64,000 nucleotides of DNA, from contig CBDUYN010000035.1 of assembly GCA_965371445.1 (NCBI GenBank), forward strand, positions 127-64,126. Direction: 5' to 3'. The DNA is from an uncultured bacterium (GTDB lineage: Bacteria; Acidobacteriota; Thermoanaerobaculia; Multivoradales; J023). The number at the start of each line of letters is the position of its first letter. Position 1 is the first letter of the stretch. Shown in pieces: positions 15,503 through 31,200 of this stretch. The position numbers and the translations under genes are program-made. The notes beneath the pieces are model-generated. The model was not told the origin of the DNA and did no database searches. It saw only the letters and a list, made by a program, of their open reading frames with translations.

Positions 15503-16111
15503 TCAGGAACGCGGGCGGCCGCTTTTTAGGAGGTTCATGAAGCTCTCCCGCTCGGCTTCGATCGTCGCGGCCGGACCGGTGGCCTTGAAAAACCAGGGAC
15601 CGCCCTCGCCCTCGACGACGGCGCCGAGCAGGATCGAGCCCGGCTGAGGCTCGGTGGGCCCGCCGCCCATGGTGCTGGGCTTCAGAGTCCCCGCGACCTC
15701 GATCCAGCTGACCTTCCAGGTGCCGAGGACGAAGCTGCCGCGTTGCGGTGCGGCGTCGGCCTCCATCTGCCCGGCCCAGCGGTTGAGGTTCGCTTCCACG
15801 CCGCCGCCGCTGCCGGCACCGAAGAAAAAGACCGCGAGCTGTCCTTCGCCGCCGGGACCCGGGATACGGGCCTGGGCGAGGCGCATCTGCGAGGAGGGGG
15901 GCTCGGGGGCCCAGCTCTCCGGAAGTGGAAAGGTGGCGCCGGGAGCGAGGATCACCCTGCCCTCGCCGGGTGTGGCGGCCGGCGGCGGGCTCGGTGCGGT
16001 GGAGGACGTGGCGGCCGGGGCGGAGGTGGACGCCGTCTCTGCCGGGGGCTCGCTTGGCGAGCATCCGACGAGGAAGGCGAGGAGCAAGAGGGGCGCAGGG
16101 GCGCGTTTCAT
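15503..16111 (-). CDS. putative lipoprotein (hypothetical)
   Basis: Start at MKRAPAPLLLLAFLVGCS (lipobox LVGC) with an AAAGGA Shine-Dalgarno. Pro/Ser/Thr-rich linker, then a globular domain. Confidence 0.55.
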   Translation of the reverse strand: MKRAPAPLLLLAFLVGCSPSEPPAETASTSAPAATSSTAPSPPPAATPGEGRVILAPGATFPLPESWAPEPPSSQMRLAQARIPGPGGEGQLAVFFFGAGSGGGVEANLNRWAGQMEADAAPQRGSFVLGTWKVSWIEVAGTLKPSTMGGGPTEPQPGSILLGAVVEGEGGPWFFKATGPAATIEAERESFMNLLKSGRPRS

Positions 16112-16191
16112 CAATCGTGGATCCTTTCGTTCTCCGGTTTGCTCGACCGAGGTTATCGCCAAATCGACGCCCAGGGTAGGGCGTCGCTCCG

Positions 16192-17181: not shown

Positions 17182-17312
17182 GGGTCGATTATACTGCCAA
17201 TGTGCTGGTGTCGAATGCCCTCCGGCGCCTCGCTCGGATAGACTGAGGAATCGAAGAGGCCGGAACCTGGCTCGGAGACTCAAGTCGTGATTCCAGAAGA
17301 TTCGCCCCCGCG

Positions 17313-19115
17313 GTGGGTGCTCTGCAGGAGGAGGACCCTGTGAGGGATCCTGTCGTGGCGCCTTCCGGCGGGCACGGCGGCTTGCCGCTGCCGGAGTCGC
17401 TGGACGAGATCCGTGCCGTGACGAGCGGCAAGCGTTGGCGAGTCTTCGAAGTCGTCGAGGAGGTGCTCGCCGAGATCGAGGCCAAGGTCGACTGGGAGGG
17501 GATCTACGACGGCGACGCGGAGCTCGCCGAATACGTCACGTGCGGTCTTTTCGTCGAAGAGGCCATCCCGGTCGCGACCCGGCGGATTCGGGAGATCGTC
17601 GACGAGCCCGACCTCCACGGCGCCCCGAGCGAGGCGACGCCGGAGGAGCTGGAGGACCACCTTTTCTGGGGCAGCAAGCAGATCGAAAACGGCATGCAGC
17701 AGACGCTCACCGTCTTGAGCCGTCGTTTGGTCAGCTCTCTGACCGAGGAGGAGGAGGCGGGACGCAAGCTGCCCGCAGAGCGCGGGAAAGCGCGCCGAAG
17801 CGAGCTCTGTATGGTGATCGCCGAGGCCGTCGGGAAGCTACGTAGCGACCTGCGCCGCTTCGCCGCTTTTGTCGTCGCCAGCAAGGCGTTCGACGCCAAT
17901 GCGGTCGAGGTCGTTCTCTTCCCGCGCAAGAACCAGGAGCTGGCGGACAGCCAGCGCTTGAAGGATCGCCTGGTCGAGACCATGGAGAGCTTCCAGGGAT
18001 CGGAACGGCGGATGCCCATCGCCGAAGTGATCCGTCAGTGGCGTTGCGGCGAGGTCTGGGGATCCTCGGCCCTGGCCGAGATCGACATGCTGATCCGCTC
18101 CCTCGCCAGCATGCTCGAGCGCGACTACCGCAAGGCCCTCTACGTCGACAGCTACTACCGGCTTTCCGACTGGATCTCCCATCTCCGGGGTTGCAGCGAG
18201 GGCCTGCGCGAGCGCCTGGGCAACGAGCTCGTCGAGGACACCTTGACCAAGGAGGTTGCCGCCGTGCTCGACAGCGACATGCTGGCCGAGATCCTCGGGC
18301 ACGAGATGTTGTTCGGCGTCGATCGGCGCGACCTCCTGGCGCTGCTGCGCTCGATCAACGAACGTGAGATCACGAAGCTCGAGATCTCGCGGGCCGAGCA
18401 AAATGAGCTCCTGGAGCTCAGGGCGGCGGCGGTCGAGGACGTGCCCCTGCCAGAGCTCGACGACCGGAAAGAGATGCTCGTCCGCTCGGCCGTCGAGGTG
18501 ATCAAGGGACGGCGCCTGGTCGACCAGCTCCGAATCCGAGCCCCCTTGCCGGAGACGTACGCCCATCTCGAGCACGTCCATCCTCTCGTCGTCGATTCGG
18601 AGGAGGGCCTAAAGACCTATCTGATGCTCCTCTACGGCCAGATCCAGAACCGCGACCTGCAGCTGCTCGAGGTCGACCAGAGAGAGGTCTCGACGGCGGA
18701 GAAGCGCCTTGCCGTCCTCGAGCTCGAGTATCAGCTCTCCCGCCTCGGCTCCATGCGGCGCTATCAGGCCTTCGAGGCCGTGCGCTGCCGCATCGCCGCG
18801 CTCGAGGCCATCGAGGTCGAGGAGTGGACGGGGCTGGACGGCTTCCTCGAGTTCCTCACCCGCGAGATCGCGCCTCGCCTCGAGCGGATCTCGACCTATG
18901 CCGAGGTCGAGGGCATTCCCGCCGACAGCGCCGCGAGGCTTCGCCAGGCCTGCCAGGAAATCCAGGCGCTCGACGAGGCGGCGGAATTCGCCGAGCTCGA
19001 AGGTCACCTCGAAACGCTCGTCGACGTCCTGGGCAGCTTGAAGAGCATCCGGGTCGTGCTCGCGCCGCCTCAGACCGAGGCCGAGATCGAGGATTTCCTC
19101 AACATGATGGGCTGA
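17313..19115 (+). CDS. hypothetical protein (large, helical/coiled-coil)
   Basis: 600-aa ORF with native codon usage. No recognisable catalytic motif. Confidence 0.55.
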   Translation: MGALQEEDPVRDPVVAPSGGHGGLPLPESLDEIRAVTSGKRWRVFEVVEEVLAEIEAKVDWEGIYDGDAELAEYVTCGLFVEEAIPVATRRIREIVDEPDLHGAPSEATPEELEDHLFWGSKQIENGMQQTLTVLSRRLVSSLTEEEEAGRKLPAERGKARRSELCMVIAEAVGKLRSDLRRFAAFVVASKAFDANAVEVVLFPRKNQELADSQRLKDRLVETMESFQGSERRMPIAEVIRQWRCGEVWGSSALAEIDMLIRSLASMLERDYRKALYVDSYYRLSDWISHLRGCSEGLRERLGNELVEDTLTKEVAAVLDSDMLAEILGHEMLFGVDRRDLLALLRSINEREITKLEISRAEQNELLELRAAAVEDVPLPELDDRKEMLVRSAVEVIKGRRLVDQLRIRAPLPETYAHLEHVHPLVVDSEEGLKTYLMLLYGQIQNRDLQLLEVDQREVSTAEKRLAVLELEYQLSRLGSMRRYQAFEAVRCRIAALEAIEVEEWTGLDGFLEFLTREIAPRLERISTYAEVEGIPADSAARLRQACQEIQALDEAAEFAELEGHLETLVDVLGSLKSIRVVLAPPQTEAEIEDFLNMMG

Positions 19116-19136: not shown

Positions 19137-19727
19137 CTAGCCGAGCTGGCCCTCCCGGAGGATTCGGCTCATGGCCTTGAACTGCGGGTGGTTCTTGTCG
19201 CGGGCCCACTCAAAGCCCACCGACTCGAGGTTGGTCAGGACGGCGCCCGCCTGCTGCATGCGCTCCAGGGCCCATTGCCGGTGCTCGGCGCCGCGGCCGC
19301 TGACCGCCTCCCAGCAGACGTGGACGGCGCTTCCGGCTTCGAGCGCCGCGAGGACCGTCTGCATCACGCAGACATGGGTCTCGAGGCCACCGACGACGAG
19401 CTGTCGCTCGGCGGGCCCGAGGCCCGGACGAACCTCCTGCAAGGCCCGCTCGAAGCCCGGATCGCCACAACAACCGAAGCTGGTCTTGGTCACCCGCCGT
19501 TTTTCGGTGGTGAGAGCTTCGAAGTCGGCCAGAAGGTCCGGGTGGGTCGGCCCCAGCCCCTTGGGGTACTGCTCGGTCAGGACGACCGGGACCTGGAAAA
19601 GCTCGGCGAATCTCAGCAGCCGCTGGTTGGCCGCCTTCATGAGCTCGGGCCGGTAGACCATGTCCACGAGCTTGCCCTGAAGGTCGACGACGACCAGGAT
19701 CGACCGGTCCACGTCCGCAAGTAGCAT
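19137..19727 (-). CDS. isochorismatase-family cysteine hydrolase
   Basis: Start at MLLADVDRSILVVVDLQ, the typical isochorismatase N-terminus. Catalytic-Cys region present (GLETHVCV). Confidence 0.8.
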   Translation of the reverse strand: MLLADVDRSILVVVDLQGKLVDMVYRPELMKAANQRLLRFAELFQVPVVLTEQYPKGLGPTHPDLLADFEALTTEKRRVTKTSFGCCGDPGFERALQEVRPGLGPAERQLVVGGLETHVCVMQTVLAALEAGSAVHVCWEAVSGRGAEHRQWALERMQQAGAVLTNLESVGFEWARDKNHPQFKAMSRILREGQLG

Positions 19728-19905
19728 CGGAAGGCCTCCTCGATGGGATTCTCTTCGGAAGACGCGGCCCACGGCGACGCCGCCGGGACCTTACGTTTAG
19801 CACCGAGGTTATCACGGCGGGCGCTCGTCGTTCTCGTCCTCGCTTCGCGGCCGGCGTTCGTCGACGCCTTGCTGACGGCGCTCGAGCACCTGCGGAGAGC
19901 TTCGG

Positions 19906-20457
19906 CTACTCGATGGGACCGTTCCTCGCGGTGGCTGCCGGAGCGGCGGCGAGCAGCGCCGGCTGAGGTGCGCCGGCGTCTTCGCCGTAGTCGACCCACT
20001 TGCTGACCGCGTGACCCTCGGCGTCGACTCCGGCCACCAGGATGCGGCCGATCTGGGGGTAGTGGGTCATCGTCTCGACCAGCTGGGTGTTGATCCAGTG
20101 GAAAAGACGCACCCGTCCGCCGGCGTATTCGATGCGGATCGTGTTCTCCTTGCGGTCCCAGTCTTCTCGAACCTCGCAGGTGCGGAAGCTCGGCGTGCTG
20201 GTCATGACGATTCGGTCTTCTCGGCCGTCGCCGTCGACGTCGCGCAGGATCTCGGCGGAGCTTCTCTTCATCATCCAGGCAAGCTGCTCGGTCTCGAGCT
20301 TGGCGGCCTTGCGAGCCCACTTCTTGCCGCAGGCCTTGTAGACCTGGTTGGCCCCGGCGACGCTCGCCATGGCGAGCGCCCCGGCCACGACTCCCACGGC
20401 TACGAGCACCTTCGGTCGAACGGGGAAGGGGAGACGGCTCGTCGCTGGGCGGGTCAT
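19906..20457 (-). CDS. hypothetical membrane-anchored protein
   Basis: Start at MTRPATSRL followed by a TM/signal segment (VLVAVGVVAGALAMASVAGA). No known domain. Confidence 0.45.
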   Translation of the reverse strand: MTRPATSRLPFPVRPKVLVAVGVVAGALAMASVAGANQVYKACGKKWARKAAKLETEQLAWMMKRSSAEILRDVDGDGREDRIVMTSTPSFRTCEVREDWDRKENTIRIEYAGGRVRLFHWINTQLVETMTHYPQIGRILVAGVDAEGHAVSKWVDYGEDAGAPQPALLAAAPAATARNGPIE

Positions 20458-20713
20458 GGCTGGCCTCCTTTCGGCGCGAAGCGATCGGCTGCATTGCCGG
20501 GCGCCTCTACCAGGGCAATCGCAATCGGGCGCCATTTCCGATCGCCCTCACTTGATTACGCGAAAAAACCGAGCCTTTCCTGTCATCTGCGGCGCGCTTT
20601 TTCCAGAGAATTCCTGCGCCGGCGGGGGGGATCGCCCAGGAGGCCGGGTTGCGGGTGAACCTCGGCGTGGTTTCGGCGTAAGATACGCCAAACCACCGAC
20701 GAGGCGAGCCCGT

Positions 20714-21532
20714 ATGCCCGATGCAATGACCGAGACAGCCCTGGACCGTGGGACCCTGACCTACCCGACCTTTGCCGAGCTGCTACCGGAGCAGACCCTC
20801 ACCGAGGGCCGCTACGAGCTGCGCTTTGCGCGCACCTCGGAGGGGCTCGACGAGCTTCAGCGGCTGCGCTTCGAGGTCTTCAACCTGGAGATGGGGGAGG
20901 GGCTTGAGGCCTCCTACGAAACGGGCCGCGACGCTGACGAATTCGATCCTGTTTGCCACCACCTGATCGTCTGCGAGCGAGCCGGGGGCGCCATCATCGG
21001 CACCTACCGCTTGCAGACGAACGCCATGGCCGAGGCCCACGTGGGTTTCTACTCGTCGGGAGAGTTCGACCTCGCCGCTTTCGGCAAGGACGTGCTCCGG
21101 CAGTCCGTCGAGCTCGGACGGGCCTGTGTGGCCCACGAGCACCGCAACACCCAGGTGCTTTTCTTGCTGTGGAAGGGGTTGGCCCTCTACGTCGCCTACA
21201 ACCAGAAGCGGTACTTCTTCGGCTGCTGCTCGCTGACCAGCCAGGATCCCGTGGAGGGACGCGCGGTGACGGCTTACCTGGAGAAGCACGGTCACCTCCA
21301 CCCGGAGCTTCGCCTGGAGCCGCAGCCGGGGCTGCGGTGCTATCCTGCCGACGCGGAGCCCGACCCCCGGTTTCGCGTCAAGATCCCGAAGCTGTTCCGG
21401 ATCTACCTGCGCCACGGCGCCAAGGTCTGCGGAGCGCCGGCCATCGACCGGCAGTTCAAGACCATCGACTACCTGGTGCTCTTTGACGTCGAGGCGATGA
21501 GCGAGCGCCAAGTGCGGACCTTCTTCGGCTGA
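20714..21532 (+). CDS. GNAT-family N-acyltransferase of the OlsB / N-acyl amino acid synthase (FeeM-like, Acetyltransf_5) type
   Basis: Start at MPDAMTET within the longer ORF. Motifs typical of OlsB/NAS enzymes are present (DEFDPVCHHLIV, GTYRL, FKTIDYLVLFDVEAM). Confidence 0.8.
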   Translation: MPDAMTETALDRGTLTYPTFAELLPEQTLTEGRYELRFARTSEGLDELQRLRFEVFNLEMGEGLEASYETGRDADEFDPVCHHLIVCERAGGAIIGTYRLQTNAMAEAHVGFYSSGEFDLAAFGKDVLRQSVELGRACVAHEHRNTQVLFLLWKGLALYVAYNQKRYFFGCCSLTSQDPVEGRAVTAYLEKHGHLHPELRLEPQPGLRCYPADAEPDPRFRVKIPKLFRIYLRHGAKVCGAPAIDRQFKTIDYLVLFDVEAMSERQVRTFFG

Positions 21533-21560
21533 GCCACAAGCCTACGAGGAGTAAGACCTC

Positions 21561-22058
21561 TTGACCCCGAATCGAAACATCCACTTCCTACTCCAGGGGC
21601 TGGAGCTCTTGGCCTCTCTGGATGCGGAGACCTACTCCACCCCGAGCGCTGGACGGTCGCCGATCGGCGCTCACCTGCGCCACGTGGTCGACTATTACCG
21701 CTGTTTCCTGCGGGGCCTCGAAGACGGACGCGTCGACTACGACGGCCGCGAGCGCGACCCCGGGATCGAGACCGATCCGAAGCAGGCGTCGACGGCGCTC
21801 CAAGACCTCGTGGAACGCTTCAAGGGCCTCGACCGCGACGGCGGCGGACGTCCCTTGGAGATCAAGGTCGACACCCGGGAAGACGAAGGCGACGTCTGGA
21901 GCCGCTCGACGGTGGCCCGCGAGCTCCAGTTCCTGATCAGTCACACCGTGCATCACTACGCGCTCATCGCGATCCAGCTGCGCCAGCACGGTATCGATCC
22001 CGGGGAAGCCTTTGGTGTCGCGCCGTCGACGCTCGACTACCGGCGTCGGAAGTCCTGA
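21561..22058 (+). CDS. DinB/YfiT-like (DinB_2) putative metal-dependent hydrolase
   Basis: 165 aa. His-rich DinB_2 signature (GAHLRHVVDYY ... ISHTVHHYALI). Confidence 0.7.
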   Translation: MTPNRNIHFLLQGLELLASLDAETYSTPSAGRSPIGAHLRHVVDYYRCFLRGLEDGRVDYDGRERDPGIETDPKQASTALQDLVERFKGLDRDGGGRPLEIKVDTREDEGDVWSRSTVARELQFLISHTVHHYALIAIQLRQHGIDPGEAFGVAPSTLDYRRRKS

Positions 22059-22819
22059 TGTGTACGGTGAGCTGGCTCTACGGCGCCGGCGGCTACGAGC
22101 TCCTGATGAACCGTGACGAGCTCCGCCGCCGGAGCTGGGCGGTCGCGCCGCGGCGCTTCGAGCGCCAAGGCGTGGCCTACCTGGCCCCCGAGGACGGCGA
22201 CGCCGGAGGCACCTGGATCGCCGTCAACGAGCTCGGAATGACCGTGGCGCTGCTCAATCGCTATCCCGACCGCGGCGGAGTTTTCGTCAGCCGTGGTCTC
22301 CTGACCAAGGAGCTGGCGACCTCGACGAGCGTCGAGGAGGCCGTCGAGCGCTTGACCGAGCGCGGGCACGACGCCCTCAACTACCGGCCTTTCACTCTCC
22401 TGCTCCTGGAGCCCGAGAGCGAGCCGACCGTCCTCCTCTGGGACGGGGAGCTCCTCGCCCAGGTCACCGAGGCCGTGGCGCCGCCGCTGTCGTCGTCGTC
22501 GCTTCATCCGCAGGAGGTCGCTCCGGTGCGGCGGCGGTTGTGGCGCCGGTTGGTGGGGGAGGCGCCGTCGTCCTCCGTGCTGGTGGGCTTCCACCGCAGC
22601 CACGAGCCGGAGCGCGGAGCGTACTCGCCTTGCATGCACCGCGACGACGCACGCACGGTGAGCCTCACCCACGTCCGGGTGACGCCGGCGGCGGTCGCCG
22701 TGAGCTACGCCGACGGTCCGCCGTGCTCGGCCGAGCTTTCGCACCCGCTGACCCTGATGCGCCGGGCCGCGCCGTCGCGCTGGGCCCTGCCAACGCATCA
22801 TGCCGCGCCCGTCGGCTGA
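22058..22819 (+). CDS. NRDE-family (TANGO2-like) protein
   Basis: N-terminus MCTVSW...LLMNRDE is the hallmark of PF05742. The ATG overlaps the stop of the upstream gene (TGATG). Confidence 0.8.
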   Translation: MCTVSWLYGAGGYELLMNRDELRRRSWAVAPRRFERQGVAYLAPEDGDAGGTWIAVNELGMTVALLNRYPDRGGVFVSRGLLTKELATSTSVEEAVERLTERGHDALNYRPFTLLLLEPESEPTVLLWDGELLAQVTEAVAPPLSSSSLHPQEVAPVRRRLWRRLVGEAPSSSVLVGFHRSHEPERGAYSPCMHRDDARTVSLTHVRVTPAAVAVSYADGPPCSAELSHPLTLMRRAAPSRWALPTHHAAPVG

Positions 22820-25430
22820 GGCGCCCCCGGCTGAGGCGCCCCCGGCTGAGGCGTCGCCGCGGCGAAGGTGGCTACGGCTCCTCGCCGTCCTCTACCTGGC
22901 GCTGCTGGCCACCTCGCACCTCGTCCGCTGGTGGACGGCGGACGACGCCGAGCTGCCACCCGGTGCCCGGGAGATGGAGCTTCCGGCCTTCGTGGGTGAC
23001 CGTGAGGTCGAGGGCGAAAAGGTTCGCCTCGCCTACTACGAGTGGGACGACGGTACGCCGCGGCCGCAGGCGGCACCCCCGGTGGTCCTTTTGCTCCACG
23101 GCAGCCCGGGAAGGGGAGGGAGCTTCGCGCGCCTGGCGCCGCTTCTTGCCGAGCGCTTTCGCGTCCTCGGACCCGACCTGCCGGGCTTTGCGTCGTCCGA
23201 ACGCCGGATCCCCGACTACTCGATCCGCGCCCACGCCCGCTACGTCGAGGCCTTTCTCGACGAGCTCGGGATCGACGAGGTCCACGTCGTGGGCTTCAGC
23301 ATGGGGGGCGGCGTGGCCCTGGAGATGGCCGCCCGGCAGCCGGAGCGTCTGCGTTCCCTGACGCTACTCTCGTCGATCGGCGTCCAGGAGCTCGAGCTCC
23401 TGGGGAGCTACCACCTGAACCATGCGGTCCACGGCCTGCAGCTGGGCGCCCTGTGGCTCCTCCGCGAGACGGTGCCTCACTTCGGCGTCTTCGACGTCGG
23501 CGCGGTCGCCTACGCCCGGAACTTCTACGACACCGACCAGCGTCCTCTCGAGGGGATCTTGAAGACCCTGGAGATGCCGGTCCTGATCGTCCACGGCGAA
23601 GACGACGTCTTGGTGGGCGTGGAGGCGGCGTACGAGCATCATCGATTGGTACCGCAAAGCGAGCTGGAGCTGTTTGACGCGAGCCACTTCATGGTCTTCC
23701 TCCAACCCGAGGAGCTCGCCGAAGCCCTCGCCGCGTTCGTCGAGCGGGTGGAACGGGGGGAGGGACGCAGGCGGGCTGCGGCCGATCCCGAACGAGTGGC
23801 CGCGGCCGCCGCGGAGCGCGTCGCTCTGCCCGAGATCCACGGCTTCGGCCTCGTGGTCTGGATGGCGCTCGCCGCGGCGGCGACGCTGGTGAGCGAGGAC
23901 TTGACCTGTATCGGAGCGGGTCTCTTGATCGCCAAGGGGCGGGTGGCTTTTTTCCCCGCGGCCCTGGCCTGCTTTCTGGGCATTTTCCTGGGTGACCTCA
24001 TGCTCTATTTCGCGGGCCGGCTCGGACGAGGGTGGCTCGGCCGGGCACCGCTGCGCTGGATCGTGCGTCCGGCCGACGTCGAGCGCAGCCGGGCGTGGTT
24101 CGAGCGCCGTGGTGGGCTCGTCATCTTCCTCAGCCGCTTCCTGCCGGGGACTCGCCTGCCCACCTACGTGACGGCGGGCCTCCTGCGGATGAACGCTTTT
24201 TGGTTCACCCTCCAGCTGCTGGTCCCGGTCGCCCTCTGGACGCCGCTCCTGGTGGGCGCCGCGCAGCTCCTGGGCGAGCAGGCCTTCGCGTCGCTCGACC
24301 TCTTCGAGCGCTACGCCCTGCCGGGTTTCGTCGGCCTCCTGCTCGGGGTCTGGACCGTCCTGACCCTGGGCCGTTCACTCGCCACCCACCGCGGCCGGCG
24401 GCTCTTGCGCGGTTGGTGGCGGCGCAAAGTGGAGTGGAAGCTCTGGCCGGTCTGGCTCTTCTATCTGCCCGTCGTGGCTCGGGTCCTGGGGCTCGGCATC
24501 CGGTACCGGGGGCTGACGCTCTTCACGGCGGCGAACCCGGGGATACCGGCGGGGGGCGGCTTCATCGGCGAGTCCAAGGCGGAGATCTTGTCGCGGCTCG
24601 ATCCGCGCTGGGTGGCAACGTTTCGTCCGGTACCGGGAGAGCTGGCCCTCGCCGAGCGGCTGGCGGCGGTGCGTGCCTTCCGGAAAAGGAATGGCTTCGG
24701 CTTCCCGGTGGTCCTCAAGGTCGACCAGGGACAGCGCGGCGCCGGGGTGAGGATCGCCCGCTCCGAGGAGGACGTCGTCCACTTCTTCAGGACGACGCCG
24801 CAGGACGCGATCGTCCAGGAGTACGTCCCGGGGCCGGAGCTCGGGGTCTTCTACGTGCGGCTGCCGGGCGAGGAGCAGGGACGGATCTTCTCCGTCACCG
24901 ACAAGCGGCTGCCGTCGGTCGTGGGCGACGCTCGCTCGACCCTGGAGGAGCTCGTCCTGGACGACGAGCGCGCGGTGGCGATGGCACCGGTCTACCTGAA
25001 GGCATTGGGGGAGCGGAGCGCGGAGGTGCCTGCGGCGGGGGAAGAGGTGCGGCTCACCGAGCTCGGCACGCACTGCCGCGGCGCCGTCTTCCTCGACGGC
25101 GCGCGCTTCGCCACGCCGCGGCTCACCGAGGCCGTCGAGCGGATCAGCCGCAGCTTCGACGGCTTCTACTTCGGGCGCTACGACCTGAAGGCGCCGTCCT
25201 ACGAGGCCTTCGAAGCCGGACGTGACCTGAAGGTCCTGGAGCTGAACGGCGTGACCTCGGAAGCGACCCACGTCTACGATCCGCAGGTTCGTCTCGTCGA
25301 CGCCTACCGGGTGCTCTTCGAGCAGTGGCGCCTGGCCTTCGAGGCGGGGGCTCGAAATCGCGACCGCGGAGTGGAACCGGTGGGGCTCCTCGAGCTCCTC
25401 CGTATGCTGGTCGCGTTCCGGATGCTATGA
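22800..25430 (+). CDS. three-domain fusion protein: alpha/beta-hydrolase fold + DedA/VTT (SNARE-associated) membrane domain + RimK-like ATP-grasp ligase domain
   Basis: 876 aa.
- N-terminal alpha/beta hydrolase: HGSPG oxyanion region, GFSMGG nucleophile elbow, and a downstream D...H.
- Central polytopic VTT/DedA segment (GGLVIFLSRFLPGTRLPTYVTAGLLRMNAFWF).
- C-terminal ATP-grasp (FPVVLKVDQGQRGAGVRIARSEEDV; IVQEYVPGPELGVFYV; LKVLELNGVTSEA).
- An N-terminal AEAPP tandem repeat is present. Confidence 0.8.
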   Translation: MPRPSAEAPPAEAPPAEASPRRRWLRLLAVLYLALLATSHLVRWWTADDAELPPGAREMELPAFVGDREVEGEKVRLAYYEWDDGTPRPQAAPPVVLLLHGSPGRGGSFARLAPLLAERFRVLGPDLPGFASSERRIPDYSIRAHARYVEAFLDELGIDEVHVVGFSMGGGVALEMAARQPERLRSLTLLSSIGVQELELLGSYHLNHAVHGLQLGALWLLRETVPHFGVFDVGAVAYARNFYDTDQRPLEGILKTLEMPVLIVHGEDDVLVGVEAAYEHHRLVPQSELELFDASHFMVFLQPEELAEALAAFVERVERGEGRRRAAADPERVAAAAAERVALPEIHGFGLVVWMALAAAATLVSEDLTCIGAGLLIAKGRVAFFPAALACFLGIFLGDLMLYFAGRLGRGWLGRAPLRWIVRPADVERSRAWFERRGGLVIFLSRFLPGTRLPTYVTAGLLRMNAFWFTLQLLVPVALWTPLLVGAAQLLGEQAFASLDLFERYALPGFVGLLLGVWTVLTLGRSLATHRGRRLLRGWWRRKVEWKLWPVWLFYLPVVARVLGLGIRYRGLTLFTAANPGIPAGGGFIGESKAEILSRLDPRWVATFRPVPGELALAERLAAVRAFRKRNGFGFPVVLKVDQGQRGAGVRIARSEEDVVHFFRTTPQDAIVQEYVPGPELGVFYVRLPGEEQGRIFSVTDKRLPSVVGDARSTLEELVLDDERAVAMAPVYLKALGERSAEVPAAGEEVRLTELGTHCRGAVFLDGARFATPRLTEAVERISRSFDGFYFGRYDLKAPSYEAFEAGRDLKVLELNGVTSEATHVYDPQVRLVDAYRVLFEQWRLAFEAGARNRDRGVEPVGLLELLRMLVAFRML
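22816..22850 (+). repeat. 15-bp direct tandem repeat (ggctgaggcgccccc, about 2.3 copies) encoding AEAPP peptide repeats at the N-terminus of the fusion protein
   Basis: gaggcgcccccggctgaggcgcccccggctgaggcg, seen directly in sequence. Confidence 0.5.
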
Positions 25431-25459
25431 TCGTGCCGATCATAATCCGGAGACCAGCC

Positions 25460-26056
25460 ATGCGACTCGACGAAACCTACGTTCCCTTCGCGAATCCTGC
25501 CGACCAGATGGAAAAAGGCCTGGAGCTCTGCCGCCGGGGCAACTGGGAGGACGGCCTGGAGCAACTGCGGATGGCGGCCGAGAGGATGCCGTCGGGCGAC
25601 GCCAAGCCGAGCCGCTACTACTCCTACCTGGGCTACGCCATCGCGCTGCGGGAGAAGAAGCTCCGTGAGGGAATCAAGCTCTGCCGATACGCCATCAAGC
25701 AGGAGTTCTACCAGCCTGAGAACTACTGCAACCTGGCGCAGACCTACCTCCTGGCGGGGAACCGGTCCGGGGCCATGAAGGCGGTGGCCAAAGGGCTCAA
25801 GGTCGACGCCAACTTTCCGCTGCTGCTGCAGCTTCACGCCAAGCTGGGCGCCCGGCGTCCGGCGGCGGTCCCGTTCCTCTCGCGGAACAATTTCCTCAAT
25901 CAGATGCTCGGGCGGATACGTCATTCGATGAAGTCTTCGAAGGAGAAGGCGGCGAAGGCGAAAATCGCGGCGCAGGCGAGGAAAGCGGCGGGAGCGAAGA
26001 AGAAAATGGCGGCGAAGAGGCCGCCGAACCGTGCGCCGAGAAAGTCGGCCCCTTAG
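25460..26056 (+). CDS. TPR-like repeat protein with Lys/Ala-rich basic C-terminal tail
   Basis: Start at MRLDETYV with a GGAGA Shine-Dalgarno. TPR-like helices (YYSYLGYAIAL, NYCNLAQTYLLAG). C-terminus KEKAAKAKIAAQARKAAGAKKKMAAKRPP. Confidence 0.5.
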   Translation: MRLDETYVPFANPADQMEKGLELCRRGNWEDGLEQLRMAAERMPSGDAKPSRYYSYLGYAIALREKKLREGIKLCRYAIKQEFYQPENYCNLAQTYLLAGNRSGAMKAVAKGLKVDANFPLLLQLHAKLGARRPAAVPFLSRNNFLNQMLGRIRHSMKSSKEKAAKAKIAAQARKAAGAKKKMAAKRPPNRAPRKSAP

Positions 26057-26361: not shown

Positions 26362-27405
26362 ATGGGAGAGGCGCAGAACGGCGTCAACGTCGTCGTCCTC
26401 GACGCTTGCCGCGACAATCCCTTCCGCGGCTTCCGGACCTTGAGCCGCGGCTTGGCGCAGACCCGTGCGCCGAAAGGGACGCTGATCGCCTACGCCACCG
26501 CGCCGGGCGACGTGGCGGCCGACGGCGACGGCCGGAACGGCATCTTCACGGGGCATCTGCTCCAGGCGTTCCGCGAACCGGGCCTCCAGATCGAGCAGGT
26601 CTTCAAGAAGGCGCGCGAGGCCGTCGATGCGGCGACCGGCGGACGGCAAGTGCCTTGGACGTCCTCGTCGCTGGTCGGAGAGCTGGTGCTCGCGAAGAAG
26701 GAGCCCGCACCCGCGTCGCCTCCGCCACCCGTCGTGCAGGAAGGCGCGCTCGAGCTTGCCCTGTGGGAAGAAGTCAAGGACAGCGAAGCCGTCGCAGAGT
26801 TACGGGCCTACCTGAGGAGCTATCCCGAGGGCACTTTCTCGGAGCTTGCGCGCCTGCGGGTTCTTAAGCTTGAGATTTTGCCGCCGAGGCAGCCGCGGCC
26901 CGGACAGGAGTGGACGGATCCCGGAACCGGAATGACCCTGCGATACATTCCGGCTGGAAAGTTCATGATGGGAAGCCCCAAAGACGAAGTCGATCGCGAG
27001 GAGGATGAAATCCGGCACGAGGTAGAGCTGACCCGAGGCTACTGGATGGGAGAGACGGAGGTGACCCACGGACAGTGGCTGGAGCTGATGGGAAACAACC
27101 CTTCCGCTTTCTCAAGCTGCGGAGATGACTGTCCGGTGGAAACCGTAAGCTGGTACGACGCGGTGACGTTCGCGAACCGGCTGTCGGAAAAGGCCGAACT
27201 GCCCGGTTGCTATGAGCTGACCTGCGAGGGATCCCCGGGTGAGAAGGGATACGTCTGCTCCACGGTAGAGTTGAAGGATCTGACCTGCGAAGGATATCGG
27301 CTGCCCACGGAGGCTGAATGGGAGCACGCGTCCGGAGCGGAGGGCGAAGGAGCCTCGGGTGCGCTCTGGCTCCTTCTCAGTCCGTCCCGGATGCGAAGAG
27401 GCTGA
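26362..27405 (+). pseudogene. gene remnant: caspase-like (peptidase C14) C-terminal portion fused to a formylglycine-generating-enzyme (FGE/SUMF1)-like domain; truncated at both ends
   Basis: - The ORF begins directly at the C14 catalytic-Cys region (VVVLDACRDNPF). The upstream His-containing half is absent, and an in-frame stop lies 2 codons upstream.
- The FGE-sulfatase-like domain (YIPAGKFMMGSP...RHEVELTRGYWMGETEVT...YRLPTEAEWEHA) stops about 100 aa short of a complete FGE fold.
- The region is lower-GC than its flanks. Confidence 0.55.
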
Positions 27406-27495
27406 CCGGCTCGGAGTCGTCTTGAGCGCCAGGACTTGTCCGAACGCCCGAGAGTAGCTACAATCGTCCTGCACAAGATTGGCGAAACCCACCAG

Positions 27496-27690
27496 ATGCC
27501 GAGGAAAGTCAGAGAGCTGGTCAGGGACTTGACGAAGGCGGGGTTCGTCGAGTCAGGAGGCAAGGGCAGCCACAGGAGATTCAAGCACACCGGTGGAGCC
27601 AAGGTGACGGTCAGCGGAAATCTGGGCGCAGACGCCAAAGCCTACCAGGAGCTGGAAGTGACCCGCGCGATTCAGGAGTCTCAGCGATGA
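27496..27690 (+). CDS. hicA: HicA-family mRNA interferase toxin
   Basis: Start at MPRKVRELVRDL. HicA/YcfA signature (GGKGSHRRFKH). The stop overlaps the hicB start (ATGA). Confidence 0.7.
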   Translation: MPRKVRELVRDLTKAGFVESGGKGSHRRFKHTGGAKVTVSGNLGADAKAYQELEVTRAIQESQR

Positions 27691-28238
27691 AGGAACGTGA
27701 CCAGTATCTCAAAGTCGTCCAGTGGTCTGAAGTGGACCAGTGCTATGTCGGCACTTGCCCTGGCTTCGTCCTGGGTGGCGTTCACGGCGACGACGAGGTG
27801 GAGGTGTATCGGGAGCTTTGCGAGGTCGTCGACGGATGGATTCAGACCTTCCACGAGGACGGAGAGCCTTTGCCCCCCGCCACCGCGGCGCCGGAGCCTT
27901 CCGAGACGGAAGCCTGGCTTTTGAGTGGGAGGCCGAGATCTGCCTCCAAACTCGTAGATCCGCGCCTCTACCGGCTGCTCGACGATCAGGGCACAGGCAG
28001 TGAAGTGGCAGAGCCTCGGACCCCCTACGGCGACGAAATCGACGAGCCTCGTGCCGAGCTCGCTTCTCTCATCCAAGAAGCCGTCCTGCCCTGGACCCGA
28101 ATCGCCAGTTGGACGGATGCCGAAAAAATCCGCTCCGAGGTGGAACGGAGGATCCGTCGACATCTCAAGGCAGCCCGCTATTCCCGCGAAGCCGCCACGA
28201 GTCTCGTCCCGAAGATCGTCGGACTTCTTCGTGACTAG
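27687..28238 (+). CDS. hicB: HicB-family antitoxin (UPF0150 N-domain) with extended C-terminus
   Basis: N-terminal HicB fold pattern (YLKVVQWSEVDQCYVGTCPGFVLGGVHGDDEVEVYRELCEVVDGWI). Translationally coupled to hicA. The 3' end overlaps the convergent kinase gene by about 70 nt, so the true stop may lie earlier. Confidence 0.6.
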   Translation: MKERDQYLKVVQWSEVDQCYVGTCPGFVLGGVHGDDEVEVYRELCEVVDGWIQTFHEDGEPLPPATAAPEPSETEAWLLSGRPRSASKLVDPRLYRLLDDQGTGSEVAEPRTPYGDEIDEPRAELASLIQEAVLPWTRIASWTDAEKIRSEVERRIRRHLKAARYSREAATSLVPKIVGLLRD

Positions 28239-31200
28239 CGAGCCCGCTTGAATCGTCCAGGGAGGAGAGCGCTTCCGCCGCCTGGTCGGCGAAGCGTGGA
28301 AAGCCCAGGGCGCGTGCCTCCTCGGCGAGCGGCGTGAGCAGATCTCTGCCCGCCTCCTCGTCGCCGGTCTCCAGCAGCATCCGTCCGAGCGCGAGGCGGG
28401 GACGGAACCGAAGAGCCGGAAAATGTCGCGTGACGTCGCCTTCGGCGACCAGGGCTTCCAGGGTCTGCCGCGCGGCTTCCACGTTGCCGCCGGCCAGGTC
28501 GATCCGGGCAGAGACCCCGAGCCGGTCCAGCCGGACGGGGAAGGCTTCCTGGGAGAGCCCTGGTTGCTCGAGTAGCGGTGCCAAAACCTGCCGGGCCTCT
28601 TGGGGCTTCCCTTGGTCCAGGAGGACCTGGGCCAGCGCTCTCCGTGCAAGCGGGGGAGGAAGCTCCGGGCTCGCTGCCGTCAGCTCACGTATCCGTGCCT
28701 CGGCCTGTGACGGGCTCCCCAGGAGAGTCGCTGCCGTGAGGTCGAGCTGGGTCTGCATCCAGGCGTTCCCGGTGGCGCCCCAGTGCTGGGCCGCGGTTTC
28801 AAAGAGGCGGCGGGCTTCGCGATCCTCCCCACGGTAATAGTAGACGTAGGCCAAGGTTTCCGACGCCATGGCCAGGATGAGCTCGGCTTCCATCTCTCGG
28901 CCCGCGGCGAGCGCTTCTCTGGCTCTTCGCTCGGCCCGTTCGAGCTGCCCTAGCTCGACGAGGAGCCTCGCCGACTTGCTCGCGGACATGCCGACGGCGA
29001 AGAGGTGGCCTCCCTGCCGGGCGTTGAGCAGCGCTTCCTCGAACAGCTCCGCGGAGCGCGGCGGATCTTCGGTCGAGATCTGGCCGGCCAGGTTGGAGAG
29101 GAAGCCGGCCGTCATGGTGAGGTTTCCCGCCTCCCGAGCCTTTTGTGCCGCCTCTTCAAAGAGCTCGACGCTGCGGGCCGGATCGGAAAGGTGGAGCCGG
29201 GCCCCCTGGAGGCTCAAGGCCTCGGCTTCCGTCTGGCGGTCGCCGGTCTTTCGAGCGAGCTCCAGAGCTTCGGCGAGCATCTCCTGGGCCGGGCGCTCTT
29301 CGTCCGATTCCCTTGCCAGCCAGACGAGCGCCAGGGCCGTACCTCGCAGGTCGCCGACTTCGCGGAACGTCTCCAGGGCGTCCCAGTACGTCAAGGCGAG
29401 CCCCGCCCGCTCGGCGGGGAGGTGCCGCAAGACGACGGCGAGGTGGAGCAGAGCCCGTGCCAGGGCGAGGCGGTCACCGCGCTCCTCGAAGATCTCGCGG
29501 GCCTGGGCGAGAGCGCTCCTCGCCTCCTCGCCCCGTCCCAGGCCGAACAGGGCCTCGGCCTCGTGAAGCCGGGCCTCGGCGAGGAGCGCTTCGGCGTCCA
29601 GGGCCTCGGCGGCCTCCGCGGCCCGTCCGGCGGCCCGGCGTTGACGCTCCAGCACGCCGCGCTTGCGGGCCGCCGCCGCTTCGGCGAGGTCCATGCGCGC
29701 CTCGACGTACGGGCCGCCGCCCATCCGCCGGTTGTGGCGCCGGAGCTCCACCACCGTCGCAAGAGCCGCCAGGGGATCGCCGGAAGCCGTCTCCACCGCC
29801 GCCAGGCGCAGGCCGTGCTCGACCTCTTCGGGGTGCTCGTGCCACAGCTCCTCGTAGATCCGCCGCGCCGGCTGCCAGTCTCGCGCCAGCTCCCGGTAGA
29901 GTCCCTCGATCAGCAGCCGTTCTTCCCGCGGCAACGGCTCCGTCATCTCGAACGCCCGGCGAGCCGCCGCCGTGGCCCGGGTCTCCCAGCCGATCTCCGA
30001 CCAGCAACTCGCCAGCGCCGAGTGGACCTTCACCGCTTCGGGCTCGGCGGCGGCCGCCGCCGTCAGCAACTCGCTGGCTTCCCGGAGGTCGTAGCGGCGC
30101 AGCCTCTCCAATCCCCAGGTGTAGAGCCGCTTTCCCTCGGCGCTCACCGGCAGGCCGGCTTGAGCCGTCCGGGGCTCGCCGGCCGCCGGGGCGAGGACCT
30201 GAGAGGCGGAATCGGAGGGGCGGGTCTCGACGGTTGGGCGCCTGAGGAAGAGCGCCGCAACGAGGAGGACGGCGAGGAGCGCCGCCGCGCCGCCCACGGC
30301 GCCGAAAGTCCTCGGGGACAGTGCTCTCTCCTCCGCCAGTTGCGCGGCGAGCTCACCGGCGTGCCGGAAGCGCTCGTCGGGGCGCCGTCGCAGACAACGC
30401 AGCACGGCCGCTTCCCACCGGCGATCGAGCTCTGGCCGATGCATCGTGAGAGCCGGCGGATCCTCCGTGAGACGAAGCCGCGCGGTCTCTTGCGGCGTTG
30501 TGCCGCGAAAGGGCAGGACGCCGGTCAGCATCTCGTAGATCACCACCCCGAACGAGTAGACGTCGGCAGCCGGCGTCGCCGCCGCACCCGCTACCATTTC
30601 GGGAGCCGCGTAGGCCGGCGTCCCGCCGCCGGAGGCCGTCGTGTCGGATCGGCCGCGGGGTCCCCCGAGCATCTCCTGAGCGACGCCGAAGTCGGTCACC
30701 ACGACGCGGATCCCCGCGTCGGATTCGACCAGCAGGACGTTGGAGCTCTTGAAGTCGCGATGGATCACGCCGGCCTGATGGGCCGCGTCGAGCGCCGCGG
30801 CCATCTCCCGGATCAGGGGAAAGGCCTCCTCAAGCTCGAACGGTCCTTCGCGGCGAAGTCGCTCGGCCATGGTCTCGCCCCGCACGAGCTCCATGGTGAG
30901 GAAAAGGATCGACGGGCTCTCCTGGCCCCAGGCCAAGCGGTCCCGGTGTTGGAAGAGGTCGAAGATCCGGCAGACGTTGGGATGGGTCACCTGGCGGGCG
31001 AGGTGGATCTCGCGCTTGAAGCGCTCGGCCGATCCCTTCTGCCGGACGAGGTCGGGACGGATCACCTTCAAAGCCACCGCGGTGCCGAGCTCCAGGTCCT
31101 CGGCCTCGAAGACCTGTCCCATCCCCCCCTGGCCCAGCAGCCGGACGATGCGGAAGCGCTCGCCGACCTCCTCGCCCGGCGCGAAGGTCGCGACCGTCGG

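Follow-up and report, generated by a model that had tools for sequence, protein, structure and literature searches.

A gene cluster encoding an OlsB-family N-acyltransferase and an alpha/beta-hydrolase-DedA-ATP-grasp fusion: a putative extension of ornithine-lipid metabolism

Among the described systems closest to the locus reported here is the OlsB/OlsA pathway of Sinorhizobium, Brucella and Rhodobacter, which is without DinB, TANGO2, DedA, ATP-grasp and hydrolase functions. Ornithine lipids build up in the outer membrane (PMC12971839), and we found no flippase named in that review. Peptide head groups occur on aminolipids, namely Ser-Gly (flavolipin) and Orn-Ser-Gly (PMC12971839), and in Gluconobacter cerinus cerilipin is formed by ATP-dependent placement of taurine on the ornithine-lipid carboxyl, the gene being not known according to the March 2026 review (PMC12971839). 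In planctomycetes, OlsB is replaced by OlsH, a GH3 adenylating enzyme and not an ATP-grasp, which works with OlsI, a protein of alpha/beta-hydrolase fold acting on lyso-ornithine lipid; an ATP-dependent step is present there too (PMC12493201).

The four genes described here extend the ornithine-lipid pathway of bacteria in a widely conserved form, for which our literature search found no published description. It has OlsB, whereas the planctomycete pathway has OlsH, and it adds to the OlsB/OlsA pathway all the functions listed above as missing from it. Its likeness to cerilipin formation is one of chemistry: forming an amide at the head group of an aminolipid, at the expense of ATP, is a reaction of ATP-grasp type. 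Its likeness to OlsI is one of fold.

The window, that is the whole 64-kb stretch of DNA analysed, contains four co-directional ORFs on the plus strand at 20714-25430 (Table 1), as described in an earlier note made from the sequence. The tight spacing reported there was confirmed: a 28-nt spacer separates g1 from g2, g2 and g3 share one nucleotide (TGA at 22056-58, ATG at 22058-60, read directly as TGATG), and g3 and g4 overlap by 20 nt, from the g4 ATG at 22800 through the stop codon of g3 at 22817-19, likewise on direct reading. The g1 start is an ATG internal to a longer ORF opening at 20348. GC3 of the four frames (0.80-0.90) is similar to that of the remaining genes of the window. All domain assignments of the note (OlsB-like, DinB, NRDE and a three-domain fusion) hold.

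Table 1. Positions of the four genes and of the domains of g4 in the window.
Feature	Coordinates	Strand	Size or basis
g1, OlsB-family N-acyltransferase	20714-21532	+	272 aa; PF13444, NCBIfam OlsB models
g2, DinB-fold protein, putative metalloenzyme	21561-22058	+	165 aa; DinB_2, DinB
g3, TANGO2/NRDE homologue	22058-22819	+	253 aa; PF05742
g4, TM anchor-alpha/beta-hydrolase-DedA-ATP-grasp fusion	22800-25430	+	876 aa
g4 residues 20-46, N-terminal TM anchor, N-terminus predicted inside	22857-22937	+	model helix 20-46; hydropathy
g4 residues 56-320, Ser-Asp-His alpha/beta-hydrolase, esterase/lipase-like, predicted periplasmic	22965-23759	+	
g4 residues 345-530, DedA/VTT membrane domain	23832-24389	+	VTT_dom, UptA models, YqjA alignment
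g4 residues 546-568, hydrophobic Pro-Pro helix-break-helix (WEFWP..FYPPVV..)	24435-24503	+	putative monotopic ATP-grasp anchor
g4 residues 575-876, divergent ATP-grasp ligase, predicted cytoplasmic	24522-25430	+	model, Foldseek, profile match

The product of g1 matches Pfam PF13444 (Acetyltransf_5) at 4.6e-31. Its best NCBIfam matches are OlsB models (4.9e-43 and 4.9e-40, across nearly the full length), and the ranking continues with OlsF and GlsB; this scoring bears out the reading of g1 as an OlsB-type aminolipid enzyme and does not place it with non-lipid GNATs. The score, 148 bits, is well under the OlsB equivalog cut-offs of 350 and 320. A FeeM identity was rejected, the match (0.005) being under the FeeM cut-off and OlsB, OlsF and GlsB scoring far better. 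The motifs are conserved in 53 g1 homologues that adjoin a fusion gene. The predicted product of g1 is a lyso-aminolipid of the N-(3-hydroxyacyl) amino acid type.

The fusion is present in at least 566 species genomes. Gene neighbourhoods were counted in 58 informative fusion loci whose flank extends to 3.5 kb or more. An OlsB gene precedes the fusion, in the same orientation, in 48 of them, DinB occurs in 42 and NRDE in 25, so that the four genes are indeed co-conserved. About 17% of fusion genes do not adjoin OlsB. The modal order is OlsB > OlsA-like > DinB > (NRDE) > fusion, and at four loci OlsB alone stands directly upstream of the fusion. Because this order recurs in dozens of genomes from about nine phylum-level groups, as judged by record titles, the operon represents more than a chance arrangement. 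Split forms also exist (ATP-grasp alone, DedA-ATP-grasp, TANGO2-ATP-grasp), with OlsB, DinB, DedA, TANGO2 and ATP-grasp staying clustered; on three Terriglobales-type contigs these five are separate adjacent genes, and another contig carries OlsB > PlsC > DinB > DedA-ATP-grasp. TANGO2-TM-ATP-grasp and ABH-TM-ATP-grasp fusions were found as well.

An OlsA-like PlsC (LPLAT) gene lies between OlsB and DinB, in the same operon, at 38 of the 58 loci; in most related loci it thus comes immediately after OlsB, as in the classical olsBA arrangement. It carries the acyltransferase motifs NHxSYxD and FPEGTS and matches OlsA models best in NCBIfam (1e-41 to 2e-43), at about 143 bits against an equivalog cut-off of 300. 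The earlier note was right that OlsA is absent from the operon, and we found no PlsC homologue within the 64-kb window; its suggestion that the fusion stands in for OlsA did not hold, as the two occur together at these 38 loci and the fusion must therefore be an added function. The window and its six closest relatives, in which the operon gene is also missing, simply lack it, having only lost or relocated OlsA, and the region is best explained as a conserved aminolipid gene cluster in reduced form. Three Terriglobales-type clusters are likewise without OlsA. Given its absence in these and in the window, the product of such operons may be single-chain, or g4 itself may perform the second acylation.

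We obtained an AlphaFold2 model of g4 with pLDDT 90.3 and pTM 0.71; the protein has more than 2300 homologues, the full-length ones being 50-65% identical. Residues 94-200 match Abhydrolase_1 (1.1e-35), and the hydrolase resembles lipases, among them PlaF of Pseudomonas aeruginosa (6i8w), an inner-membrane-anchored phospholipase A with 26% identity, whereas in g4 the hydrolase forms one domain within a larger protein. Since unrelated esterases in large number give equally good scores, no substrate can be inferred.

The following domain matches VTT/DedA (VTT_dom, residues 373-487, 9.8e-13) and UptA models (1.8e-13). It shares with YqjA/UptA-type DedA proteins (COG0586) the predicted layout of two re-entrant hairpins and three TM helices, and in a BLASTP alignment with E. 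coli YqjA the residues D367, R446 and R452, all invariant, correspond to D51, R130 and R136. The hairpin tips are acidic and basic, as typical of the undecaprenyl-phosphate flippase subfamily. In contrast to these proteins, the g4 family does not conserve an equivalent of YqjA E39, and g4 has a hydrolase ahead of hairpin 1 and an ATP-grasp after the last helix. A DedA survey (COG0586, COG0398), which gives percentages for the commonest fusion partners only, names neither an ATP-grasp nor a hydrolase among the partners. We regard the domain as a putative lipid flippase, for which the genomic context of g4 favours an aminolipid over undecaprenyl phosphate. Cysteine-accessibility data for YqjA show the residue ahead of hairpin 1 to be periplasmic and the C-terminus to be cytoplasmic. 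By homology, the g4 hydrolase would be periplasmic and the ATP-grasp cytoplasmic, and the charge distribution in 96 sequences agrees, the N-terminus being short and basic. In line with this, two-domain forms, which begin at hairpin 1, have an uncharged or acidic N-terminus.

The RimK-type ATP-grasp score is 20.3 bits in whole g4, slightly under the cut-off of 21, and 22.3 bits for the isolated domain; all 14 family members tested match. The fold of the domain model (pLDDT 85.6) was confirmed with Foldseek, which retrieved the cyanophycin synthetase G domain, D-Ala-D-Ala ligase, GshAB and VanA (E 3e-9 to 6e-7), and the domain profile matches 7ta5 (3.5e-7) in an alignment that pairs the Lys and E-x-N motifs. 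K640, E680, R793, D795, E814 and N816 (catalytic Lys, R-x-D, E-x-N) are invariant, and many invariant polar residues ring the predicted active site. In place of a separate N-terminal domain there is a conserved hydrophobic hairpin, the element at residues 546-568, which has basic residues on either side and is conserved in fusion proteins as well as in stand-alone homologues, where it lies at the N-terminus. By profile and fold, the closest relatives are peptide- or amide-forming ligases (cyanophycin synthetase, Ddl, GshAB, RimK). Every architecture of the module retains the ATP-grasp as its constant part.

For four genes with recognisable domains, intact catalytic residues and evident genomic coupling, we infer substrates and reactions as follows. 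On the cytoplasmic side of the inner membrane, g1 would N-acylate an amino acid, probably ornithine or a relative, from 3-hydroxyacyl-ACP; a second chain would come from an OlsA-type acyltransferase, operon-encoded in most relatives and not in the window. On this aminolipid g4 may work as a three-compartment enzyme. Its anchored ATP-grasp would catalyse an ATP-driven carboxylate-amine ligation on the head group. The bond could form at the free alpha-carboxyl, with an amino acid or an amine as partner, or at the side-chain amine, with an amino acid as partner; both routes would give a peptide-type head group. The DedA domain would then shift the lipid to the periplasmic leaflet, where the Ser-Asp-His hydrolase, tethered beside the flippase, could de-acylate or trans-acylate it. 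We propose this ATP-dependent "modify, flip, trim" module tentatively, with somewhat less than even confidence. The suggestion that the ATP-grasp may add a second amino acid, giving a dipeptide lipid, is circumstantially supported, because the domain has peptide-forming ligases as its nearest relatives, is membrane-anchored and recurs in every architecture. Counting against the model are the g1 score well under the OlsB cut-offs, the missing OlsA in the window and the Terriglobales-type clusters, DedA hairpin tips like those of undecaprenyl-phosphate flippases, the roughly 17% of fusion genes away from OlsB, a domain sidedness derived from homology, and the ability of ATP-grasp enzymes to form esters (VanA) or to activate fatty acids.

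That same ability bears on an unlikely alternative, a re-acylation or repair cycle for aminolipids like PlaF/LplT-Aas for phospholipids, in which g4 would provide the OlsA step or take its place: the hydrolase would remove the ester-linked chain, DedA flip the lyso-aminolipid, and the ATP-grasp convert free fatty acid into acyl-phosphate and re-esterify the 3-hydroxyl. Hydroxyl nucleophiles are usable by ATP-grasp enzymes, VanA being among the fold matches, and fatty-acid activation, as for Legionella acyl-histidine, is cited in PMC11631085. OlsA-less operons (the window, its six close relatives, the four OlsB > fusion loci and the three Terriglobales-type clusters), the lipase-like hydrolase with its resemblance to membrane phospholipase A 6i8w, and OlsI, an alpha/beta-hydrolase proven as lyso-ornithine-lipid O-acyltransferase (PMC12493201), also fit such a cycle. 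It is opposed by the lack of anti-correlation between OlsA-like gene and fusion, by closest structural relatives that activate amino-acid or peptide carboxylates, and by the many invariant polar residues around the predicted active site. Decidedly improbable is a secreted or surface product, an N-acyl amino acid or lipopeptide-type surfactant or signal in place of a bulk membrane lipid, which OlsB would make, the ATP-grasp extend, DedA export and the hydrolase release. PF13444 enzymes do make N-acyl amino acids, operons here and at several other loci are without OlsA, and g1 falls well under the OlsB cut-offs; yet most clusters hold an OlsA-like O-acyltransferase, g1 is far closer to OlsB, OlsF and GlsB than to FeeM, and wide genome distribution with a single conserved gene order fits a housekeeping envelope role.

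Just as improbable, in our view, is tRNA-free aminoacylation resembling that by MprF, with the ATP-grasp forming an ester between an amino acid and the hydroxyl of a lipid, such as phosphatidylglycerol or the aminolipid, DedA flipping the product and the hydrolase setting its level by taking the amino acid off. A ligase inside, a flippase and a periplasmic hydrolase reproduce the three-part logic of MprF with the aminoacyl-PG hydrolases, in g4 as one polypeptide of predicted topology; the fold matches include VanA, a depsipeptide ligase, and the basic DedA hairpin tip would suit an anionic lipid. g4 has no homology to MprF, lacking both its tRNA-dependent synthase domain and its type of flippase domain, with ATP via the ATP-grasp as energy source and DedA as flippase candidate. 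Against this reading, we know of no case of lipid-hydroxyl acylation by an ATP-grasp, and near-obligate linkage to OlsB would be left unexplained. We give very little weight to a soluble head-group precursor (a dipeptide or modified amino acid) made by the ATP-grasp and then N-acylated by g1, the anchor merely holding the enzymes together. Ligases for soluble amino acids or peptides are indeed the closest relatives, but the membrane hairpin is always conserved on the ATP-grasp, stand-alone forms included, and fusion to membrane domains has occurred repeatedly. Slightly less probable still is a general envelope function merely co-regulated with olsB, e.g. undecaprenyl-phosphate recycling, to which the closeness of the DedA domain to UptA-type models and the kept D51, R130 and R136 equivalents would point; the translationally coupled, overlapping genes, a linkage conserved across the groups named in record titles and in split architectures, and the unconserved E39 equivalent argue against it.

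Returning to the aminolipid module, g2 (as a metalloprotein) and g3 (as a Cys-Ntn enzyme) would be its cytoplasmic accessory enzymes. The g2 product, a putative DinB-fold metalloenzyme, matches DinB_2 at 4.8e-11 and DinB at 2.5e-8 (Pfam), with just one weak match in the PDB, the DinB-like 3dka; H41, H128, H131, H132 and R40/R63/R65 are invariant among 19 homologues. The g3 product matches PF05742 at 2.9e-10 (41 bits, cut-off 22.6). This family is shared with human TANGO2 (8sv7), a proposed acyl-CoA-binding Cys-Ntn hydrolase and the sole PDB match of the g3 profile, distant at 5e-5 with an alignment covering the N-terminal half only. Its Cys2 and N25-R26-D27-E28 have counterparts in Cys2 and the NRDE motif of g3, where M1-C2-T3 and R19-D20-E21 show no variation and N18 almost none (19-30 homologues). 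We regard g3 as a candidate hydrolase or acyltransferase of the Cys N-terminal-nucleophile type, located in the cytoplasm, whose target would most plausibly be a fatty-acyl amide or thioester.

The cluster adds to an operon of ornithine-lipid type an undescribed ATP-grasp/DedA/hydrolase machine together with TANGO2 and DinB partners. It consists, as claimed in the earlier note, of four co-directional genes, all present as open reading frames (ORFs). The tight packing described there was also confirmed from the sequence: the TGA of g2 (22056-58) and the ATG of g3 (22058-60) have one base in common, and g4 opens with its ATG 20 nt before the end of g3, whose stop codon lies at 22817-19. The gap between g1 and g2 is 28 nt. 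GC3 of the four frames (0.80-0.90) is like that of the remaining genes of the window. Neither Rfam families nor promoter-like signals of weight were found within the operon or immediately upstream, and terminator-like signals in or near it were limited to weak, intragenic matches.

Coordinates of the operon genes, of neighbouring features in the window and of selected features in related loci
Feature	Sequence	Coordinates	Strand
g1, OlsB-like N-acyltransferase	window	20714-21532	+
g2, DinB-fold protein	window	21561-22058	+
g3, TANGO2/NRDE protein	window	22058-22819	+
g4, hydrolase-DedA-ATP-grasp fusion	window	22800-25430	+
Short tandem repeat, 5' end of g4	window	22815-22850	
ORF without Pfam match	window	15503-16297	-
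ORF without Pfam match	window	16192-17283	-
ORF without Pfam match	window	17313-19115	+
Isochorismatase	window	19137-19772	-
ORF without Pfam match	window	19906-20535	-
TPR protein	window	25325-26056	
Peptidase_C14/FGE-sulfatase ORF	window	26362-27405	+
HicA toxin-like ORF	window	27436-27690	+
183-aa ORF	window	27687-28238	+
Ser/Thr protein kinase, 1035 aa	window	28165-31272	-
YHS and ~160-aa hydrophobic protein ahead of DinB (Terriglobales-type split cluster)	L081	4026-5501	
YHS and ~160-aa hydrophobic protein ahead of DinB (Terriglobales-type split cluster)	L088	3720-5183	
YHS and ~160-aa hydrophobic protein ahead of DinB (Terriglobales-type split cluster)	L089	4160-5615	
P0343, TANGO2-ATP-grasp fusion	L087	3182-5350	
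Three-gene set upstream of OlsB	L085	3507-5867	
Three-gene set upstream of OlsB	L084	4225-6540	
Three-gene set upstream of OlsB	L081	669-2976	
Isochorismatase-family gene	L083	9986-10543	

Of the domains proposed in the earlier note, profile searches of g1 and g4 recovered Acetyltransf_5, Abhydrolase_1 and VTT/DedA. The first, PF13444, is matched by g1 with 108 bits against a gathering cut-off of 22.4 (E 4.6e-31). In NCBIfam, two OlsB models rank at the top (4.9e-43 and 4.9e-40, nearly full length), followed in turn by OlsF (its N-acyltransferase half) and GlsB. The OlsB models match best, yet the scores stay far under their equivalog cut-offs (147.7 bits vs 350; 137.8 vs 320), so that g1 falls into an OlsB-like family without being a certified equivalog. 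The FeeM-type synthase profile (PF21926) was not reached by g1, at 17 bits against a gathering cut-off of 27 (E 0.005); from the OlsB/FeeM-type assignment made earlier, only the OlsB-like half can thus be kept. Judged by these profiles, g1 is a predicted OlsB-like aminolipid N-acyltransferase.

The product of g2 matches DinB_2 (PF12867) with 43.7 bits (gathering cut-off 24.8), and its putative His ligands H41, H128, H131 and H132 are invariant. For g3, PF05742 (TANGO2/NRDE) scores 41.2 bits against a cut-off of 22.6, human TANGO2 structures being the sole PDB matches of its family profile. Among 19 homologues, M1, C2, T3, R19, D20 and E21 do not vary, and the conservation of N18 is 90% or more; the MCT start is common to all N-termini listed, and the N-R-D-E motif is kept (19-30 homologues). 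We take over the roles of these residues from work on TANGO2, where Cys2 with N25, R26 and D27 was argued, on the basis of a 2026 crystal structure, to form a Cys N-terminal-nucleophile active site. This site was likened to those of bile-salt hydrolase, acid ceramidase, NAAA and isopenicillin N acyltransferase, all of which act on acyl amides (PMC13044924).

By Pfam, g4 combines Abhydrolase_1 (1.1e-35), VTT/DedA (9.8e-13; 49.1 bits against a gathering cut-off of 33.9) and a weak RimK-type ATP-grasp match. It was modelled with AlphaFold2 from a 96-sequence alignment (pLDDT 90.3, pTM 0.71). The hydrolase shows an alpha/beta fold with the Ser (GxSxG)-Asp-His triad of serine esterases and lipases; S167 (in GFSMGG), D269 and H296 are invariant over the alignment, as are E366, D367, R446 and R452 of DedA and K640, E680, R793-x-D795 and E814-x-N816 of ATP-grasp. 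From this invariance of catalytic residues, the hydrolase, DedA and ATP-grasp parts all appear to be intact. The DedA region remains below the UptA equivalog (51 bits vs a cut-off of 250). When compared with E. coli YqjA by BLASTP, its D367, R446 and R452 correspond to D51, R130 and R136; E39 of YqjA aligns with M355 and so is not conserved, the invariant E366 adjoining D367. A short tandem repeat (GGCTGAGGCGCCCCC-like) in the 5' end of the g4 gene encodes AEAPP three times, and these repeats fall within the low-confidence residues 1-16 (pLDDT < 50). The alignments to homologues do not begin before about residue 12-40, so that translation may actually start further downstream.

The C-terminal domain, modelled alone (pLDDT 85.6), was matched by Foldseek to the cyanophycin synthetase G domain, D-Ala-D-Ala ligases (Ddl), GshAB and VanA (E 3e-9 to 6e-7, probability 1.00, TM ~0.5), and by profile to 7ta5 (3.5e-7), in an alignment that pairs the Lys and E-x-N motifs of the two. 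Fold and motifs therefore bear out the ATP-grasp part of the earlier "RimK-like" description. Membership in the RimK subfamily is not borne out, the score of 20-22 bits lying around the cut-off of 21 with some 60 residues matched; no other named ATP-grasp subfamily (Ddl, cyanophycin synthetase) reaches its cut-off. We treat this domain as representing a putative separate, undescribed ATP-grasp family.

Sidedness of the g4 domains was derived from YqjA homology and charge statistics. In YqjA, which has three spanning helices and two re-entrant hairpins, cysteine accessibility places A20 (just before hairpin 1), S52, V59 and V180 in the periplasm, and V99, L117 and the C-terminus are cytoplasmic (bioRxiv 10.1101/2021.10.18.464800). 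Mapped on g4, this makes the linker before ~345 periplasmic; hence the hydrolase is predicted to be periplasmic, held by an N-in transmembrane anchor (residues 20-46). The same mapping places the ATP-grasp domain in the cytoplasm, in keeping with its need for ATP. Charge counts over the 96 sequences agree with this topology: the short N-terminus is basic, loops 410-445 and 529-547 are strongly basic, and loop 493-504 is neutral. Two-domain DedA-ATP-grasp proteins start at hairpin 1 and have no basic residues there. The segment 546-568 (WEFWP..FYPPVV..), which persists in ATP-grasp homologues that stand alone, has basic residues on either side and is therefore read as a putative monotopic anchor.

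Relatives of g4 were found in at least 566 genomes (one genome per species). According to record titles, from which the MAG labels were also taken, the best 80 of these include Acidobacteriota (Thermoanaerobaculia, Blastocatellia and others), Gemmatimonadota, Rhodothermales, Cytophagia, Planctomycetota, Verrucomicrobiota, Calditrichaceae, KSB1 and Desulfobacterales. One of the loci, L064, belongs to Acidobacteria bacterium Mor1 (CP011806), a candidate cultured carrier. Gene order was counted in the 58 loci whose flank ahead of the fusion reaches 3.5 kb or more. A same-strand OlsB-like gene lies upstream in 48 of them, which supports the conservation of the neighbourhood; DinB is present in 42/58, a PlsC-type gene between OlsB and DinB in 38/58 and NRDE in 25/58. 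The most frequent order is OlsB > PlsC > DinB > fusion (18 loci), followed by OlsB > PlsC > DinB > NRDE > fusion (16 loci). The window's own order, OlsB > DinB > NRDE > fusion, recurs in six loci of its closest relatives, and OlsB > PlsC > fusion and OlsB alone before the fusion occur in four loci each. In the fusion loci devoid of OlsB (L035, L046, L049, L050, L057), neighbours gave no informative Pfam matches.

These counts bear on OlsA, the PlsC-type O-acyltransferase of ornithine-lipid synthesis. Its reported absence holds for the operon and, moreover, for the whole 64-kb window: tblastn with OlsA-like proteins found none, the two matches being traced to wrong-frame query ORFs. The PlsC-type protein of the relatives carries NHxSYxD and FPEGTS motifs, and two OlsA models are its best NCBIfam matches (1e-41 to 2e-43), well above generic PlsC. 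The earlier proposal that the fusion stands in place of OlsA fails, since the OlsA-like gene, placed immediately after OlsB, and the fusion occur together in 38/58 loci. Likewise, the hydrolase was rejected as a general OlsA substitute, because it co-occurs with the OlsA-like gene in most loci. The fusion is an addition to an olsBA-type operon, of which the window genome has a reduced version.

Clustering at 50% identity (E <= 1e-30) splits the ATP-grasp family into about 1526 clusters. The top 150 divide into 27 stand-alone (<=450 aa), 53 intermediate and 70 longer than 700 aa. On three long contigs, the stand-alone ATP-grasp closes a series of YHS, DoxX-like, DinB, DedA and TANGO2 genes, in this order, with a divergent OlsB just upstream. 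The DoxX-like label of the ~160-aa hydrophobic protein, which has homologues in 15 loci, is a guess from a weak DoxX_2 match on another protein; the ~160-aa protein itself had no match in NCBIfam. Elsewhere, a DedA-ATP-grasp protein follows OlsB > PlsC > DinB, and in two proteins (P0248, P0257) the hydrolase is joined to ATP-grasp by one transmembrane helix, without DedA. In P0343 (722 aa), a TANGO2 domain (8.2e-66) is joined via hydrophobic segments to the same ATP-grasp family, providing independent evidence that both functions are coupled; there is no OlsB in its neighbourhood. Together, these split and alternative forms show that ATP-grasp is the constant core and that, of its neighbours, OlsB is the most constant; both the hydrolase and OlsA are optional.

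That the cluster is an aminolipid-linked module is well supported. As to its chemistry, we favour, tentatively and with somewhat less than even confidence, a three-step reading: the OlsB product would first gain a head-group amide through the membrane-anchored ATP-grasp, then be translocated by the DedA domain and finally be remodelled by the periplasmic hydrolase. Four points speak for it: this ATP-grasp is structurally akin to peptide ligases; in place of the N-terminal substrate domain that is usual, it has a membrane hairpin; its active site is lined by many polar residues that do not vary; and there is an orphan activity of just this kind. A March 2026 review (PMC12971839) describes an ATP-dependent transfer of taurine to the carboxyl of ornithine lipid, the gene for which is given as unknown; it also records Ser-Gly and Orn-Ser-Gly head groups and an enrichment of ornithine lipids in the outer membrane.

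The main rival is a re-acylation cycle in which ATP-grasp would esterify a fatty acid to a lyso-lipid. It would account for operons without OlsA and has precedents in VanA-type ester formation, in an ATP-grasp that activates fatty acids (PMC11631085) and in OlsI, an alpha/beta-hydrolase that serves as O-acyltransferase (PMC12493201); we judge it distinctly unlikely. Ranked lower still are three readings: the product would be an N-acyl amino acid or lipopeptide that is secreted, a soluble precursor of the head group would be made, or an MprF-like aminoacyl ester cycle would operate. To MprF the likeness is one of logic only; no Pfam domain of the tRNA-dependent aminoacyl-PG synthase or of the MprF flippase was found in g4. 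An unrelated undecaprenyl-phosphate function, also ranked low, is suggested by the UptA-like hairpin tips of the g4 DedA and contradicted by the linkage to OlsB.

Full-text literature searches found no published description of the cluster, and databases name the fusion only "alpha/beta fold hydrolase" or "pimeloyl-ACP methyl ester carboxylesterase/DedA". The pathway given in the recent reviews consulted consists of two acyl transfers, hydroxylation, methylation and the taurine transfer (including PMC12971839, where ATP-grasp, DedA, DinB, TANGO2 and a flippase all go unmentioned). We found no flippase for ornithine lipids named in these reviews, despite the outer-membrane destination. The cluster thus offers gene candidates for three open points, namely an ATP-dependent head-group ligase, a lipid translocator and a periplasmic remodelling enzyme, and connects the debated DedA and TANGO2 families to a defined lipid pathway amenable to genetics and lipidomics. 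Substrates of DedA proteins besides undecaprenyl phosphate are unclear, and TANGO2 is a human disease gene of unsettled function. Since Acidobacteriota make up an abundant part of soil communities, a lipid class of theirs that has gone unrecognised would also be of consequence for environmental lipid biomarkers.

The joint reading, in which the cluster produces peptide-head-group aminolipids of a class not yet described and widespread among Acidobacteriota and further groups from soil and sediment, we consider somewhat unlikely. If true, g4 would be the first single polypeptide to unite cytoplasmic ATP-dependent lipid modification, DedA flip and periplasmic remodelling, and its DedA domain the first aminolipid flippase. 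The ATP-grasp family would be the long-missing enzyme type for ATP-dependent head-group extension (cerilipin-like, flavolipin-like lipids), and the co-conserved TANGO2 homologue a bacterial handle on the disputed biochemistry of human TANGO2.

Directly upstream of OlsB, about 24 of 85 loci, including all closest relatives of the window, carry a three-gene set (besides those in the table, L001-L005, L017, L021-L024 and others) that is absent from the 64-kb window. It encodes a membrane protein of ~150-185 aa, a 350-aa fusion of Ferric_reduct (MsrQ-like haem b) with Rieske 2Fe-2S, and a ~250-aa Cys-rich protein without family match (motif DSKCYLG..KPG.GK.HR.CA..C..GGIPP), which suggests a redox or oxygenase step of the same cluster.

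In the window itself, the isochorismatase and the TPR protein were rejected as members of the system, neither having a counterpart beside the fusion in 80 loci. An isochorismatase-family gene, absent from these scanned loci, also lies near the cluster in the distant locus L083; its proximity in both places is probably coincidence. Of the sizeable ORFs beside the operon that lack Pfam matches, one, directly upstream, encodes an acidic protein of 600 aa. The Ser/Thr protein kinase, which lies some 3 kb downstream and on the other strand, has a long TPR/MalT-like region; no link between it and the operon was found. Another ORF unites the C-terminal part of a caspase-like Peptidase_C14 with an FGE-sulfatase domain, which may reflect a mis-called N-terminus or a truncated gene. 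The HicA toxin-like ORF (PF07927, 5.4e-10) runs 4 nt into the beginning of the 183-aa ORF, which could be its HicB-type antitoxin.
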